DNA of 64,000 nt from Bacteroidales bacterium (GCA_045600905.1 JAZRYT010000179.1:777-64776), one strand, 5' to 3'. Shown: positions 57,062 to 64,000, counted from the stretch's first letter. Numbers and translations: made by a program. Notes: a model not told the origin generated them from the sequence alone.

Positions 57062-60000
57062 TTAATTATGGTGAACCATAATTTTTCTATTTACAAAGTG
57101 GCCGTCGGCCAATTGTATTCTGATTAAGTAGTAGCCAGTGGCATAGCCGCCCAGCTGGATTTGTGTGAAAGTATCGTCATCCACTGCTTCAACCTTAATC
57201 AAGGTACCCAAAGCATTATAGACATATACCTTCTGCATATTTTCACCACTAACATTCAAGACATCAGATGTCGGATTCGGATACATATTGAATCTTGCAT
57301 CATCGGAATATTCAGCGACACCGTCATTATTAATCACGTGCAACGTCAAGTGGACAATACTGTCACAACCGTTCACTGTATAGTTTTGAATATCGTATGT
57401 GAAATCTCCGACTTCATTCGGAATAATGGTCAAACCGTAATTGCTGTATTCGTGCGTGCGAATAGCCGAATCTTCAACGAATATATCGTATGTAGGATTT
57501 ACCAAGAGGTTCAAGACCAAGACACTGTCGCAACCCGTAGAGGAAACCAACGTGTCGAAATAAACGCCAGCTTCATCGTATTCGTGTCCGCGCCATTCGT
57601 AAGGCGTGTTATCACAGGTCTCCGCATTCGTCACAATCTGGTAGGTTCTGTTCACAGTAAGCACCAAATTGACAATGCTATCGCAACCGTTTTCAGTCTG
57701 CAGCAGTTGTTGGTCATAAACCACGCCATATTGTTCGGGCAGTGTGTCGAAGCCGAACTGCTGATAGTAATCGCCTTGGCAGATAGTGTCATAAATGGTC
57801 ACTGTGGCAGTTTGATTGACCGTGAGGAACAAATGATAGACATCGTCACAGCCGTATGCGTTCGGAATGGTGTCCGTATAGAGACCGGAAGTGCTCAATT
57901 GCAAACCGCGCCAGGTGTAAGGCTCGTTGCTACAGGTAGCAGCCGTGTCGTAATAGTTGTTAGACGGATTCACCGTCAAATTCAACGTATAGATACTATC
58001 GCAGCCATTGGCGGTAGCAAGGCTGTCATAGAATACGCCGCTTTCAGACAAGTTCTGTCCGTGCCACGGATAAGGAGCCTCACTGGAGCAGATCACCACC
58101 TGTTCGTTGATATGGTATGTGGGATTGACAATCAAGGTCATCAAGTAAATGCTATCGCAACCGGAAGCAGTCTGCAGAGAAACGGTGCGCGTGCCTGCGG
58201 CATCAAGGCTCATACCGCGCCATACAAACGGAAGTTCATTGTCGCAAACCACCATTGTATCTGCGAACAAGTATGTCGGATTAACTGTCAAGTTCAATTG
58301 ACAAATGCTGTCACAACCGTAAACGCTATACAATGTGTCTGTCAAGACATAGGAGCCGGCCGTTGTAGGAATCGTTACCGCATTGTGACCTTCCCAGACG
58401 AAAGGAACATTGTCACAGGTTTCAGCGACATCTGCAATGAAATAGGTAGGACGTACGGTCAAAGAGAGTTTCCAAATGCTGTCACAGCCATTGGCGGTCT
58501 GCAGGGAATCGAAAATCTGGTAAGAGCCGGCAGCCGTCGGGATGACTACACTTTCGTGACCATTCCATACGTAAGGTTCGTTATCGCAAGTCTCAGCCGT
58601 TTCTTCAAAGGAATAGACAGGATTAACCGTATAGGTCAATGTATAGACGCTGTCGCAACCGGATTCCGTTGCAAAGACAGCGATAACCTCAGCATTAGCC
58701 ACAGGTTGTGCCAAGCTGATCACCTCGCCGTGATAGTTGTAGGTGGAATTCATTTGGCAGAATGTCATATTGTCCGTAAAATGATACGTAGGATTAACTG
58801 TGAGTGCCATTGTATAAACGCTGTCACAGCCAGCAGCAGTTTGCAAAGAATCATAATATACACCAGAGAGATTATACTCGGCGCCACGCCAAACGACAGG
58901 CAGTTCGTTATCGCAAACGACGACTTCCGTATCAAATTGATAGGTCGGATTGACGACCAGGTTCAGCGTATAGATACTGTCACAGCCTTCAACGGTTTGC
59001 AATCTGTCGGAAAGTTGAGCAGAAGCCGTCAAAGTACGACCGCGCCAATTATACACCTGGCCGGCACAAATAGTATCAATCGTGACGAAGTGGTAGGACG
59101 GATTGAACGTGGCTGTCATCATATATACATCGTAGCATCCGGTTTCAACGTTGTCAACCGTATCGGTATAAACACCGGACTGTGTCAACTGACGACCCCT
59201 CCACTCTATCGTTTCGCCTTCACAAGAAGTTTCAGTTTCTGTGTAAAGCATAGAGTTCATCACATTCAAGGTGAGTTTATAGACGCTGTCGCAGCCGAAC
59301 TGTTGGGAAGCGAGAGAATCATAATAGACACCGGCAGCAGCCAAAGACTGGTTATGCCATACGATAGGCAATTCATAGCTGCAGACGGTTTGTGTTTCCT
59401 CGTTGAAATATACAGGAGCCTCATTTACGGTAAGGGATACGATGCTGTCACATTCGTTTTCGCGGGCAAATACGACGGTGTAAGCACCAGCCTCGTTAAT
59501 CGTGCTATCGCCATAAACGACTGGGAAATCATTAGCGCAGACAAAAATCACATCCGTTGAAGTCGGGTTAGGTTCAACCACTAAGGTAACCACCACCGTA
59601 CTATCGCAAGATTGCGGCGTGCTGTAATGAATCGTTGTTGTTCCTGCTTCTGCTATCAAAGTACTTCCATAATGATACGGGAGCTTGTTGGCGCAAGCAT
59701 AAACGGTATCAAAATGCAGGTATGTCGGATTGACATTCAAAGTCAGGGTTGTAATCGTGTTGCATCCGTCAACTTCTGTACGGACAACCTGATAGACACC
59801 CGCCTGAGCAAAGACGGAGTCTTGATAAGCGTATGGCAATTGGTTATCGCAAATGGTAACAGTTTCTTCCTCATAATTGAATGCTTCGACAGAGAAATGA
59901 ACTTGGAAAATGCTATCGCAACCGGCAGCCGTTTGCAGAGAGACGATTCTCATCGTGCCATTATCTTCCAAATCGAATTGTTCTCCGTTGAAGGTGTAAG

Positions 60001-63000
60001 GAAGAGCGCCTTGGCAAACGGCAATATTGGTATCAATGAGATAGGTCGGATTAACCGTCAAATTCAAAGTAACGACACTATCGCAGTTAAGAGAAGATGT
60101 GAGTGTGACAGGATAGCTGCCCGTACGGACATATTCCCTACCGTTGAACAGATAGCTTTCGCCATCACAAATGGAAGCATCAACCGTAGTGTAAAGCACA
60201 GGTTTAACGGTCAAGTTCAAAACCATCACGCTATCGCAGCCGTATGCTGTATGGAGAGAATCGTAAATCACATATTCGCCAGCCTCTGTCGGAATCGTCA
60301 CATTGTTGTGGCCATTCCAAACATACGGGGTATTGTCGCAAGTTTCCGCAGTTTCTTCCCAATAATAAGCAGGATGAACGGCGTAATGCAACGTAAAGAT
60401 GCTGTCGCAACCATATTGGCTGACGAACGGCACGGTAAGAGCCGTCATAGCGACAGGTTGGGAAAAATCAATGATGGAGCCGTGGTAGTTGTATGTAGTA
60501 TTGGATTGGCAGAAGTCAACCGTATCGTTCACGTCATACTTGGGATTCACTGTCAATGTCAAGGTAACGACGCTATCACAGCCGTTAACGGTTTGGCGAT
60601 TGAAAGTCATCACGCCGCTTTGACTACCAACAGCGAAGACCGTATCACGCCATTCGTAAGGAAGTACGTTTTCGCAAATGGTCAAAGATTCCTGCTGGTT
60701 GAATGTCGGATGAACAATCAAGGTCAAATCCACGATACTGTCGCAACCTGCCACAGTATGGAAGTTGAAGCTATACTGCGTAGATTGTGTCAAAAGTGTA
60801 TCGCCAAATTGGAAAGGCTCATTGTCACAAGTCTCAATGGTCAAAGATTGGCGATACGTCGGGAGCACGTTCAATGTAAGGGTGCGAATGCTGTCGCAGC
60901 CGTTGGCTGTAATCAAATTTTCAACCATAGTGCAAACACCAGCCGTTTGGGGCATCGTATCAAATCCGTTTTCATTATAGCGTTCGCCCAAGCAAATCGT
61001 TTCTGCAAACTGCAAGTCGTAAACGGGGTTCACCGTCAGTGTGAGAACCACGGTGCTGTCACAACCATATTGTGTAGGAACGACCTGTGTGTAGGTAAAC
61101 GTACCGACTTCCGCCGTTGAAATATTTTGGAAGCCATAGCGACTGTATGCTTCGTTTTGACAAACGGCATCAGACAATTCAGTAGTATTCAAATCGTGGA
61201 CGAACAAGTTCAAGATGACCACGCTGTCACAACCATTGTGAGCTGTCAGATTCAACTGATAGACACCTGGTTCTGCCGTATCGAAACCGTTTTGGTTATA
61301 AACCTCACCCTGACAGATATGAGCCTGCAAATTGGTCACGTATGCATCGCTGACGGAAAGATTCAAAGTAACAATACTGTCGCAGCCATTCACGGTAGTT
61401 TCTTCAAAGACGTAGGCTCCGGCTTCTTCAATCACTTTATTGCGCCAACGATATGGAAGAGCCGTAGCGCAAATCACTTCGGATACATTTTCATTATATA
61501 CAGGATAAACGGTTAAATGAAGGATGGTGGTGCTATCACAGCCGTTCACGTTAACATCATCGTGTTCCAATAAGTAATCACCACTGCGCGTAAACATCGT
61601 GGAAAATCCATATTTGCTATAAGCGGTATTGGCACAAACCACGTCATACAAATCCACGCGGTCACCGTGGTTGACTGTCAAATGAAGTCTGACGATGCTA
61701 TCGCAATGATGAACGGTTTCAAATGATTGTGTATAGATTCCTGTAGAAGTATAGGTTTCATTATTCCAAGTATAGCTGTTACAAGCTGTTTCATAAATAT
61801 CCTGTTCGACTGAATTGTAAATAGTCAAATGAAGCGTTACGACGCTATCGCAGCCATTCACTGTATTGAAATGTTGCACATAATCACCAGATTGCGTATA
61901 AGTTTGATCATTCCAAGAGTAGCTGTCACAATTTGAAGCGCTAAACTCAGAAGTTTCAGACGGGAAAATCGTCAAATCCAAGGTGACGACTGAATCGCAA
62001 CCATTAGCGGCTGTAAAGGTTTGCGTATAGGTACCACTTTGCGAATAACGAATATTATTCCAGGTATAAGCATCACATTCGGAATGTGAGAAACGATACT
62101 GCTTCACAGGTTTCACGCAAATAGAAAGATTCACAATGCTGTCGCAGCCATTGGAAGATACTATATTGAGTTCTCTAATATAGTCACCGGCCTGTGCAAA
62201 AGTTTCTTGAACACCGTAATTGTTATAAATCGTATTTTGGCAAATGGTATCAAAAATTGTCTGTGGTTGATAAACCGGATAAATGGTAATACTGAAATCG
62301 GAAGGAGCGCTTTCACAAACCAGGTCTTCGTGAGATTCAATATGTGTAACTTTCAAAATAGAAGATTGTGAAATCAACCCCGTATAATAATTGTCATCAT
62401 CGGATTGCAATTGCATAGGATTCATAGTGGCATCATACCAACGGTAGTCGCCCGTAGTAGGTTTAGCAACGGCAAACGTTTCAGGGCCGCAATTGGACAC
62501 TGGAGAAATCACGGCGACGGATGGGATGTCATAGACCGTTGCCGTCACCTCCGTACGAGTAGTGCTAACACAATTCGTATTGGCATTATAGCTTTCAACG
62601 AAGAAAGATTGTTCTGCAGTCACATTGGGGGCATACGTCAAGCCATCGTGCAAAGAAGTAGTAGCTGAAGCAGTTCTATACCAACGGCAAGTTGTAGCAT
62701 TATCGTCAATTTCAGCGGAGAGCGTCACGACGCCACTACCGCAACGTGACTGATTGCTAATGACGGGAGCAACGGGAATAGCATTGACCGTGGCTGTAAC
62801 GGGCACGCGCGCACTTTCGCAATTCGTATTGGTATTATAAGAAGACACGAAATAAATGGTGTTTTCAGACAATGAAGGCTGATATCTGTTTTCATTGGAA
62901 AGGGCAACAGATGATAGGTCATCCGCATACCATCTGCATTCGGTAGCGTTCGCGCCTCTATTAGCTATCAGAGTCACCGTACCGGTGCCGCATCTTACCG

Positions 63001-64000
63001 CATTTGTCACTGTTGGCACAGCAGGTTGCGGATTAACGACCAAAGTCAACGTAATCACACTGTCACAACCAACCGCATTCGGAATCGTAACGGTATAGGT
63101 TCCAGCTTGGCTGAATTCCCTTCCATTATACAATATTGGCAGTGCATTGCTACAAACGGTCATAGTTTCCGCAAAAGCTGTGGATTTCTTCACTGTCAAG
63201 TTGATTGTAACAACGCTGTCGCAATTATGAGAAGAGGTAAATGTGTGTGCTAAGACATCGGATTCCGTATAGGTTTGGCCATTCCATACGAACTGGTCAC
63301 AAACCGTTGTGTCAATATGTGTTGTTGCGGAATGACGAATGGTCAAATTCAACGTAACGATACTGTCACAGCCATTCACCGTGGAGAGTGTCTTCGTATA
63401 TTGTCCGCTTGTTGTATAAGAATCGCCTTCCCAGACGTATTCATCGCAAGCGACCTGATTATCTACCACATCAGTATAAACTGGGAAGATAGTCGCTGTA
63501 ACGGCAGCAGGTGTGCTGGCACAACCTGTCGTCTGGTTTTTATTAACAGCGTAGAAAGTGGTCGTATGGGAGAGTTCTGGGGCGAAGTTTGCACCAACGG
63601 CAACAGAATCGGCAGTTGCGGCATCTGCGAACCAAACGACAGCACAACCGTTGTCTGCCACAGCGGAAAGCGCCACGCTACCCGGACCACAATTCGTATT
63701 GGCGTTGACTTGCGGCACAGCTGGAATGGAACCGACCACAACTGTCACTGGAGTTTTGGTACTTTTGCAATGCGTTGCATCATTAATGGAAGCAACCAAG
63801 AATTGGGTTGTTTCTCTCAATGTCAAGGTTCGGTAAGTACCTTGGCTCAACTCTTCTTCAGAAGCATTGTACCATTGAGTATGGCAGTTTGCCTCTTCCG
63901 TTGTGGCGGAAAGCGTCACAGAACCGGAGCCACAAATAACGGGCACATTGGCGACGGATGGTTGCGCAGGAATAGCATTTATGGTTACATCGAGTTTTTT
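57062..64000 (-). CDS. Giant T9SS type A cargo protein, 5'-truncated by the window edge (more than 2310 aa visible): Ig-like repeats followed by about 34 tandem two-Cys 'GCDS' modules
   Basis: The frame stays open to position 64000. Codons upstream of the track's GTG at 63946 read ...KLDVTINAIPAQPSVAN, continuing the Ig-like repeat pattern. The C-terminus MYPNPTSDVLNV...GYYLIRIQLADGHFVNRKIMVHHN is a Por_Secre_tail type. Confidence 0.9.
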   Translation of the reverse strand, partial: KKLDVTINAIPAQPSVANVPVICGSGSVTLSATTEEANCHTQWYNASEEELSQGTYRTLTLRETTQFLVASINDATHCKSTKTPVTVVVGSIPAVPQVNANTNCGPGSVALSAVADNGCAVVWFADAATADSVAVGANFAPELSHTTTFYAVNKNQTTGCASTPAAVTATIFPVYTDVVDNQVACDEYVWEGDSYTTSGQYTKTLSTVNGCDSIVTLNLTIRHSATTHIDTTVCDQFVWNGQTYTESDVLAHTFTSSHNCDSVVTINLTVKKSTAFAETMTVCSNALPILYNGREFSQAGTYTVTIPNAVGCDSVITLTLVVNPQPAVPTVTNAVRCGTGTVTLIANRGANATECRWYADDLSSVALSNENRYQPSLSENTIYFVSSYNTNTNCESARVPVTATVNAIPVAPVISNQSRCGSGVVTLSAEIDDNATTCRWYRTASATTSLHDGLTYAPNVTAEQSFFVESYNANTNCVSTTRTEVTATVYDIPSVAVISPVSNCGPETFAVAKPTTGDYRWYDATMNPMQLQSDDDNYYTGLISQSSILKVTHIESHEDLVCESAPSDFSITIYPVYQPQTIFDTICQNTIYNNYGVQETFAQAGDYIRELNIVSSNGCDSIVNLSICVKPVKQYRFSHSECDAYTWNNIRYSQSGTYTQTFTAANGCDSVVTLDLTIFPSETSEFSASNCDSYSWNDQTYTQSGDYVQHFNTVNGCDSVVTLHLTIYNSVEQDIYETACNSYTWNNETYTSTGIYTQSFETVHHCDSIVRLHLTVNHGDRVDLYDVVCANTAYSKYGFSTMFTRSGDYLLEHDDVNVNGCDSTTILHLTVYPVYNENVSEVICATALPYRWRNKVIEEAGAYVFEETTVNGCDSIVTLNLSVSDAYVTNLQAHICQGEVYNQNGFDTAEPGVYQLNLTAHNGCDSVVILNLFVHDLNTTELSDAVCQNEAYSRYGFQNISTAEVGTFTYTQVVPTQYGCDSTVVLTLTVNPVYDLQFAETICLGERYNENGFDTMPQTAGVCTMVENLITANGCDSIRTLTLNVLPTYRQSLTIETCDNEPFQFGDTLLTQSTQYSFNFHTVAGCDSIVDLTLIVHPTFNQQESLTICENVLPYEWRDTVFAVGSQSGVMTFNRQTVNGCDSVVTLTLTVNPKYDVNDTVDFCQSNTTYNYHGSIIDFSQPVAMTALTVPFVSQYGCDSIFTLHYAVHPAYYWEETAETCDNTPYVWNGHNNVTIPTEAGEYVIYDSLHTAYGCDSVMVLNLTVKPVLYTTVDASICDGESYLFNGREYVRTGSYPVTLTSSLNCDSVVTLNLTVNPTYLIDTNIAVCQGALPYTFNGEQFDLEDNGTMRIVSLQTAAGCDSIFQVHFSVEAFNYEEETVTICDNQLPYAYQDSVFAQAGVYQVVRTEVDGCNTITTLTLNVNPTYLHFDTVYACANKLPYHYGSTLIAEAGTTTIHYSTPQSCDSTVVVTLVVEPNPTSTDVIFVCANDFPVVYGDSTINEAGAYTVVFARENECDSIVSLTVNEAPVYFNEETQTVCSYELPIVWHNQSLAAAGVYYDSLASQQFGCDSVYKLTLNVMNSMLYTETETSCEGETIEWRGRQLTQSGVYTDTVDNVETGCYDVYMMTATFNPSYHFVTIDTICAGQVYNWRGRTLTASAQLSDRLQTVEGCDSIYTLNLVVNPTYQFDTEVVVCDNELPVVWRGAEYNLSGVYYDSLQTAAGCDSVYTMALTVNPTYHFTDNMTFCQMNSTYNYHGEVISLAQPVANAEVIAVFATESGCDSVYTLTYTVNPVYSFEETAETCDNEPYVWNGHESVVIPTAAGSYQIFDSLQTANGCDSIWKLSLTVRPTYFIADVAETCDNVPFVWEGHNAVTIPTTAGSYVLTDTLYSVYGCDSICQLNLTVNPTYLFADTMVVCDNELPFVWRGMSLDAAGTRTVSLQTASGCDSIYLMTLIVNPTYHINEQVVICSSEAPYPWHGQNLSESGVFYDSLATANGCDSIYTLNLTVNPSNNYYDTAATCSNEPYTWRGLQLSTSGLYTDTIPNAYGCDDVYHLFLTVNQTATVTIYDTICQGDYYQQFGFDTLPEQYGVVYDQQLLQTENGCDSIVNLVLTVNRTYQIVTNAETCDNTPYEWRGHEYDEAGVYFDTLVSSTGCDSVLVLNLLVNPTYDIFVEDSAIRTHEYSNYGLTIIPNEVGDFTYDIQNYTVNGCDSIVHLTLHVINNDGVAEYSDDARFNMYPNPTSDVLNVSGENMQKVYVYNALGTLIKVEAVDDDTFTQIQLGGYATGYYLIRIQLADGHFVNRKIMVHHN

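Follow-up and report, generated by a model that had tools for sequence, protein, structure and literature searches.

A 64,000-nt stretch of the genome of a gut/rumen-type Bacteroidales bacterium (GCA_045600905.1, contig JAZRYT010000179.1, positions 777–64776; hereafter the window) encodes, on its minus strand, the C-terminal part of a 3561-aa protein in which 34 copies of a ~52-aa unit, named here GCDS after its conserved motif, are followed by a type IX secretion system (T9SS) sorting domain. The most economical reading is that of a conserved, reinforced stalk near the anchor with a variable lectin-like tip, and we put the probability that the protein forms such a covalently chained, probably glycosylated stalk holding the tip at roughly 70%.

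The minus-strand frame at 57062–64000 stays open for 2312 codons and, as the original prediction (an earlier reading of this DNA) had stated, continues beyond the window edge. On the contig (C179, one of 190 in the genome assembly) it extends for 1249 further codons to an ATG with a stop before it, yielding a complete open reading frame (ORF) of 3561 aa whose window coordinates would be 57062–67747. From the N-terminal side, the visible part comprises two Ig_7 domains, three GCDS units, three further Ig_7 domains, 31 units and the T9SS C-terminal domain (CTD) (Table 1). The Ig-like repeats that had been predicted N-terminal to the array are present and belong to Ig_7 (PF19081), but the array is not the single block envisaged, as three of these domains split it into 3 + 31 units. 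The Ig_7 pair at the window edge is the end of an Ig_7-type run reaching outside the window, and upstream of this run lie a ~360-aa lectin-like head and a signal peptide. The N-terminus, MKKIFTLLITLLLLTTVVLG followed by QHYQF, can be read directly as a Sec signal peptide, and the mature parts of homologues begin with Q. On the full protein, the only Pfam-A families above threshold are Ig_7 (14 stretches) and Por_Secre_tail (PF18962), and the only NCBIfam match is TIGR04183. The type A CTD expected behind the array is supported by both libraries (PF18962, 41.2 bits, cut-off 27; TIGR04183, 29.8 bits, cut-off 23), in each case on the last 71 residues. The same genome encodes SprA (TIGR04189, 2482 bits) and the PorU sortase (NF033707, 1216 bits), both over their cut-offs. 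The protein is a giant T9SS type A cargo, for which secretion, CTD cleavage and surface attachment are predicted.

Searching the window with the expression C[DNY][SDT][IVTLM] returned exactly 34 units (u1–u34), in agreement with the ~34 copies counted originally, and recovered the variant motifs already listed at that stage (CNTI, CYDV and CDDV). The unit is shorter than the ~70 aa first proposed, with a unit-to-unit spacing of 49–57 aa (mode ~52). Even so, the units fill most of the visible residues, as claimed (~1799 of 2312), and the module makes up about half of the 3561-aa protein. Two cysteines, C1 and the GCDS cysteine C2, are found in 33 of the 34 units; they are not invariant, as had been supposed, since the last unit retains C2 only. 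The stretch between C1 and C2 (26–34 aa) is the variable part of the unit and is rich in Tyr, Trp and Gly ('PY.W.G'). The spacing from C2 of unit n to C1 of unit n + 1 is exactly 23 aa at all junctions in both blocks and at 83% of junctions in the family. Pairwise protein identity between units averages 32% (range 12–67%).

The fold of the unit was predicted with AlphaFold2 for 3.5 consecutive units, using an alignment of 27 non-overlapping three-unit homologue pieces (mean predicted local distance difference test (pLDDT) 89.7). Each modelled unit has five strands (strand A of 9 residues, B and C of 3, D of 8 and E of 11), in line with the small beta-rich module suggested originally. Mean-field direct coupling analysis (DCA) of 7782 two-unit windows from 250 relatives served as a separate check on the fold and returned an antiparallel D/E hairpin, strand A parallel to strand E, a B/C hairpin, packing of Trp16 on Leu43 and Leu45, and, across units, a contact of position 48 in unit n with position 35 in unit n + 1, beside C2. 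As modelled, the unit corresponds to an Ig-like sandwich of which an A'-like strand, a small hairpin and a hairpin of F-G type are left. Because strands A and E are parallel, the chain would enter at one end and exit at the other, so that units would stack head to tail. In a Foldseek search of the PDB, the top match of the 3.5-unit model was the neck of GhpA (9flp_A; E 3.8e-7, probability 1.0, TMq 0.42), aligned with a root-mean-square deviation of 6.1 over 203 columns at 16% identity; the remaining PDB matches were much weaker.

The behaviour of the two cysteines across the family suggests that a disulfide most likely bridges consecutive units, from C1(n) to C2(n+1), and does not lie within a unit. 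In 10,613 units from the 250 relatives, aligned to a hidden Markov model (HMM) of the unit, C1(n) and C2(n+1) were both present in 8430 cases and both absent in 233, with the first alone retained in 6 and the second alone in 11 (odds ratio (OR) ~3e4). For C1 and C2 of the same unit, both were present in 9017 cases, the first only in 541, the second only in 444 and neither in 1 (OR 0.04), a co-loss count partly biased by the fact that a unit without both cysteines may escape HMM detection. The 233 double losses are spread over 56 proteins and 141 junction clusters below 60% identity, and their replacements form complementary pairs (e.g. S/Y, V/A, I/A); they thus represent many separate events. 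C1(n)–C2(n+1) is also the top DCA coupling (9.8; next 3.96). The odds ratios and this coupling speak against the one disulfide per unit assumed in the original prediction. C1 is missing in 27.6% of array-last units versus 3.3% of inner units, and in the 3561-aa protein the only unit without it is the last one, as a C1(n)–C2(n+1) pairing predicts. In the inferred topology, C1 lies where strand A ends and C2 where strand E begins, so C1(n) and C2(n+1) would meet at the unit junction. Pairing of C2(n) with C1(n+1) (7948 both, 308 first only, 380 second only, 44 neither; OR 3) was first favoured on the constant 23-aa spacing and this OR; it was ruled out by the DCA and the OR of ~3e4 for C1(n)/C2(n+1), and also by the topology, which sets C2(n) and C1(n+1) at opposite ends.

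The general O-glycosylation motif of Bacteroidota is D(S/T)(A/I/L/V/M/T) (PMC8550257). In 31 of the 34 units, a D[ST][AILVMT] sequon directly follows C2 ('CDS[IVT]'), and 90% of the 10,613 family units have a sequon at this position. The whole protein contains 58 sequons, compared with 15.8 +/- 3.8 in shuffled sequence, and 56 of the 58 fall within the unit blocks. A second sequon, D[ST]L on strand D, occurs in 9 of the 34 units (e.g. u25) and in 30% of the family units. As the Asp-Ser-(Ile/Val/Thr) after the GCDS cysteine constitutes an O-glycosylation sequon, each junction probably carries a glycan. Like known O-glycosylated substrates in Bacteroidota (PMC8550257, PMC8729774, PMC12871550), the protein would pass through the periplasm, and its sequon sits in the most conserved motif of the unit. 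It differs from them in that the sequon is built into the repeat fold instead of forming an isolated surface site.

Taken in order, the proposed pathway would begin with Sec export and continue with type IX secretion to the cell surface, where the type A CTD would be cleaved off and the protein anchored on the outer membrane. From the N- to the C-terminus, the precursor consists of the signal peptide (MKKIFTLLITLLLLTTVVLG, with Q as the next residue), the ~360-aa head, the long Ig_7 run, 34 units of ~52 aa and the CTD. Within each unit, strand A would lie parallel to the last strand E, with D and E forming a hairpin and the short aromatic B-C hairpin packed on top. The cysteine at the end of strand A in unit n would bond the GCDS cysteine at the start of strand E in unit n + 1. 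Since every junction would be held by both a disulfide and the backbone, the array would be a covalently chained rod, which may act as a stiff, protease-resistant spacer that keeps the tip far from the cell. A rough estimate from strand lengths of 9–11 residues gives a span of the order of 100 nm for the 34 units.

The putative tip is the head, which lies outside the window. Pfam gave no match on residues 1–380. The structural model of residues 22–385 (pLDDT 82.7, predicted TM-score (pTM) 0.81) consists of a jelly roll and a second beta sandwich, and such a MAM-like or carbohydrate-binding module (CBM)-like jelly-roll head is likely a ligand-binding tip. Identity to the closest relative (P0019) is 34–53% over the first 400 residues, 70–93% in the Ig_7 region and 97–100% in the unit array. 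The combination of a divergent head with a near-identical stalk looks like tip exchange or fast divergence.

Set against published knowledge, the unit belongs with the Ig-like repeats that form stalks in T9SS surface proteins. Neither Pfam-A nor NCBIfam has a model that scored on it, even at E ≤ 1, which agrees with the original statement that it could not be assigned to a named Pfam family; among the 120 best homologues (at least 20 units each; precomputed Pfam, newer release), no accession was common besides Ig_7 and two CTD families. None of the papers in the collection searched combined 'GCDS' with 'T9SS'. All PDB chain sequences, compared at E ≤ 10 with three unit profiles (A1, A3 and A6), gave chance-level matches only, and no GhpA chain; these matches included avidin (E 0.09), Ig kappa constant domains (E 0.01–0.3) and DSCAM (E 0.26). 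With the A3 and A6 profiles, the unit D-E hairpin and the next strand A showed a weak, non-significant similarity to the strand C–F region of Ig kappa constant domains, and a similarly weak one linked the unit to the F-G hairpin of the DSCAM Ig domain; both fit a cut-down Ig origin of the unit.

Surveying with a profile of the 34 units identified 30,364 representative proteins at E ≤ 1e-3 (8,563 at E ≤ 1e-30), in which a single protein can hold as many as 88 units; the named proteins among the matches are nearly all from Bacteroidota. Units were present in 30 of 301 genomes sampled across the phylum, corresponding to 24 of 144 genera. A search of genome contigs with a single 419-aa piece produced no match. 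Scanning the contigs with a degenerate DNA motif (G-C-D-S-[IV]-x-x-L-x-L-T-V-N-P-T-Y) gave matches in Bacteroidales (many of them rumen or gut metagenome-assembled genomes (MAGs)), Paludibacteraceae, Prevotellaceae, Saprospiraceae, Chitinophagales, Lentimicrobiaceae, Salinivirgaceae, Prolixibacteraceae, Flammeovirgaceae and others. Isolates of Draconibacterium and Mariniphaga are among the carriers. The exact motif was also seen on short contigs of four MAGs labelled Erysipelotrichaceae, Arcobacter, Oscillospiraceae and Eubacteriales (L023, L055, L066, L067), which may reflect binning contamination or the presence of the module outside Bacteroidota. Thirteen other ORFs of the same genome carry 1–17 units, which stand between other domains and a type A or type B/CHU_C CTD, just before the sorting domain. 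The heads of these paralogues include Peptidase_C10 with Lectin_like, a purple-acid-phosphatase-like N-terminal domain with fn3, and PKD_6. Among the 250 relatives, units account for a median 60% of protein length, and in 52% no more than 130 aa separate the end of the last unit from the C-terminus. We lean, by a small degree over even odds, towards regarding the ~52-aa GCDS unit as a so far undescribed module from which surface fibres are built across the Bacteroidota, with its own rule of construction, in which an interleaved C1(n)–C2(n+1) disulfide and a built-in sequon turn one polypeptide into a rod of the order of 100 nm.

The closest solved structure, and also the closest concept, is GhpA (9flp), the grappling-hook protein of Aureispira, a giant T9SS cargo with an adhesin-like tip and 52 Ig-like repeats, for which disulfides joining adjacent Ig-like domains and O-glycans on every domain are reported (10.1101/2024.01.29.577165). 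The likeness lies in the fold and in the inter-repeat disulfides, which were seen by cryo-EM in GhpA and are suggested here by covariation. There are differences as well: beyond the low identity in the fold alignment and the lack of a GhpA chain among the profile matches, the one named disulfide of GhpA joins residues 152 apart, whereas the partners proposed here are ~80 apart and recur in every consecutive pair. Moreover, GhpA forms a heptameric (C7) tube with its own basal-body genes, whereas no PorP/PorE-like gene is found among the flanking genes here. The unit may have a longer relative in Ig_7 (PF19081, 'Ig-like domain CHU_C associated'). This domain likewise has two cysteines, the first close to the domain start ('CGxG') and the second in 'GC(E/A/K)S' ahead of the last strand, and a spacing from its last cysteine to the first of the next domain of 24–28 aa, compared with 23 in the units. 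An hhalign comparison aligned the C-terminal halves (D strand, GCxS and last strand; 31 columns), at a probability of only 12% (E 0.0024). However, Ig_7 is longer, at ~75–85 aa, and no match to its Pfam model was obtained for any of the 34 units. Both Ig_7 cysteines are invariant across 1175 domains from relatives. A third cysteine, in a C[RH]W[YF]-like motif, is found in six of the 14 Ig_7 domains that the full protein contains. Reinforced stalks are also known from a Mobiluncus mulieris adhesin, whose Ig-like repeats carry isopeptide, ester, thioester or disulfide cross-links (PMC10619420), and from MpAFP and MhLap, which have Ca2+-clamped extender domains (PMC5380327). On the proposed reading, these proteins share with the present one tens of small beta domains, extra bonds, a projecting tip, and force and protease resistance. 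They differ in secretion (sortase or type I secretion system), fold and chemistry: their cross-links are intra-domain or their junctions Ca2+-clamped, whereas here a disulfide is proposed across each domain junction.

Four other explanations were weighed. That misassembly produced the long array from a shorter repeat gene, a concern the original prediction had raised and which the fragmentation of the assembly into 190 contigs would allow, is scarcely credible: Tandem Repeats Finder detected no tandem repeat in the array DNA, the most conserved 40 nt are only 60–88% identical between unit copies, the protein units are as diverged as described above, and orthologues in three independent assemblies (95, 81 and 76% identity; 3579–3594 aa in total) contain exactly 34 units each. 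As the copies have diverged in DNA and the three orthologues share the unit number, the array is real. Each ~52-aa unit could alternatively be an independent domain closed by its own C1–C2 disulfide, which is the usual expectation for small extracellular domains and would suit the two cysteines found in nearly every unit; we consider this very improbable, as C1(n) covaries almost perfectly with C2(n+1) and not with C2(n), the strongest DCA coupling is the inter-unit pair, array-last units including u34 tend to be without C1, and the inferred topology puts C1 and C2 at the top and bottom of a unit, respectively.

The other two alternatives concern the role of the array. The units could be the working part, i.e. 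multivalent modules binding glycans or host/partner proteins through the aromatic, length-variable B-C hairpin; the variable, Tyr/Trp/Gly-rich C1–C2 region, the diversity of the units and the family proteins in which units take up ~60% of the length would all be compatible with this. We regard such a binding array as unlikely: DCA sets W16 on the core residues L43 and L45 and not on a free surface, units recur near the CTD behind unrelated heads (C10 peptidase, phosphatase-like, lectin-like), and the array is the best-conserved region between strains while the head diverges, as expected of a scaffold and not of a specificity determinant. Somewhat less likely still is that several chains lie side by side to form a hollow, multi-stranded tube, as in heptameric GhpA. 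The GhpA neck is the best fold match of the units, and GhpA, itself a giant T9SS cargo, shows an adhesin-like tip at its N-terminus as well as Ig-like repeats, disulfides between domains and glycans; yet the three profiles revealed no sequence similarity to GhpA in the PDB at E ≤ 10, no PorP/PorE-like basal-body genes adjoin the gene, and a GhpA-type gene cluster is not seen at the locus.

Several points weigh against the covalently chained, glycosylated stalk with a lectin-like tip. The proposed C1(n)–C2(n+1) pairing is drawn from covariation, the same-unit comparison carries the detection bias described above, and the model assumes that an anaerobic gut bacterium forms disulfides in its periplasm. 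A sequon is necessary for glycosylation but is no proof of it, and the sequon Ser lies at a strand start, beside the proposed disulfide. The 250 relatives stem from one search seeded with the 3561-aa protein, and all are giant proteins. As for the tip, the fold search with the head returned MAM, CBM61, CBM16, CBM4 and BT_4411 with weak scores (E 2e-4 to 2e-2, TM ~0.2–0.5), and PF13201 (PCMD), for which some homologues sharing this head have a precomputed match, does not score on the head of the protein itself.

The coordinates of the features are collected in Table 1. The flanking genes encode an MBOAT protein, an AlgX-like protein, a radical SAM protein, a small membrane protein and a beta-eliminating lyase, and examination of this neighbourhood revealed no functional link. 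The giant gene is followed 88 nt downstream, also on the minus strand, by one for a predicted membrane protein of 224 aa with no Pfam family. In the upstream intergenic region, we found no convincing invertible-promoter repeats.

Table 1. Coordinates of the 3561-aa gene, its parts and related features. Positions are those of the window unless a contig or locus is named.
Feature	Position	Strand	Remarks
Predicted membrane protein, 224 aa	56300-56974	-	downstream of the giant gene
Stop codon, 3561-aa gene	57062..57064	-	start codon outside the window, at the equivalent of 67747 (C179:68523)
T9SS type A CTD	57074..57286	-	visible residues 2239-2309, full-protein residues 3488-3558; PF18962, TIGR04183
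Second block, 31 head-to-tail GCDS units (u4-u34), 49-57 aa each	57323..62269	-	44-76 bits per unit against the unit HMM
u34, last unit, without the first Cys	57323-57487	-	
AlphaFold2-modelled stretch: end of u28, u29-u31, start of u32	57770..58321	-	
Old block duplication within the array, units 14-16 (60194-60700) versus units 25-27 (58442-58939)	58442..60700	-	53% identity versus ~32% background
u25, example of a unit with the second sequon	58784-58939	-	
Three Ig_7 (PF19081) domains splitting the unit array	62270..63022	-	Pfam
First block, three GCDS units (u1-u3)	63023..63472	-	regular expression
Ig_7 pair, its first member truncated at the window edge	63473..64000	-	Pfam
Head, residues 22-385	L002:12370-13461	-	outside the window
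Compared head region, residues 1-400	L002:12325-13524	-	outside the window; compared with window 57062-62269
Unit-bearing paralogue ORFs	contigs C171, C180, C182 (three ORFs), C15, C69, C31, C143, C60, C121, C21, C44		loci L003-L012

Genes for giant T9SS proteins rank among the largest in Bacteroidota from gut, rumen and the environment, and for most of them the annotation goes no further than 'T9SS sorting domain-containing protein'. With a curated model of the GCDS module, tens of thousands of proteins would be annotated and their scaffold told apart from the functional heads. The near-identical stalk and divergent tip in close strains suggest that tips are the exchangeable specificity part. 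If true, the junction disulfide with its adjacent sequon would represent a simple, testable design for long, stiff surface stalks, in which one polypeptide becomes a glycan-coated, disulfide-laddered rod.

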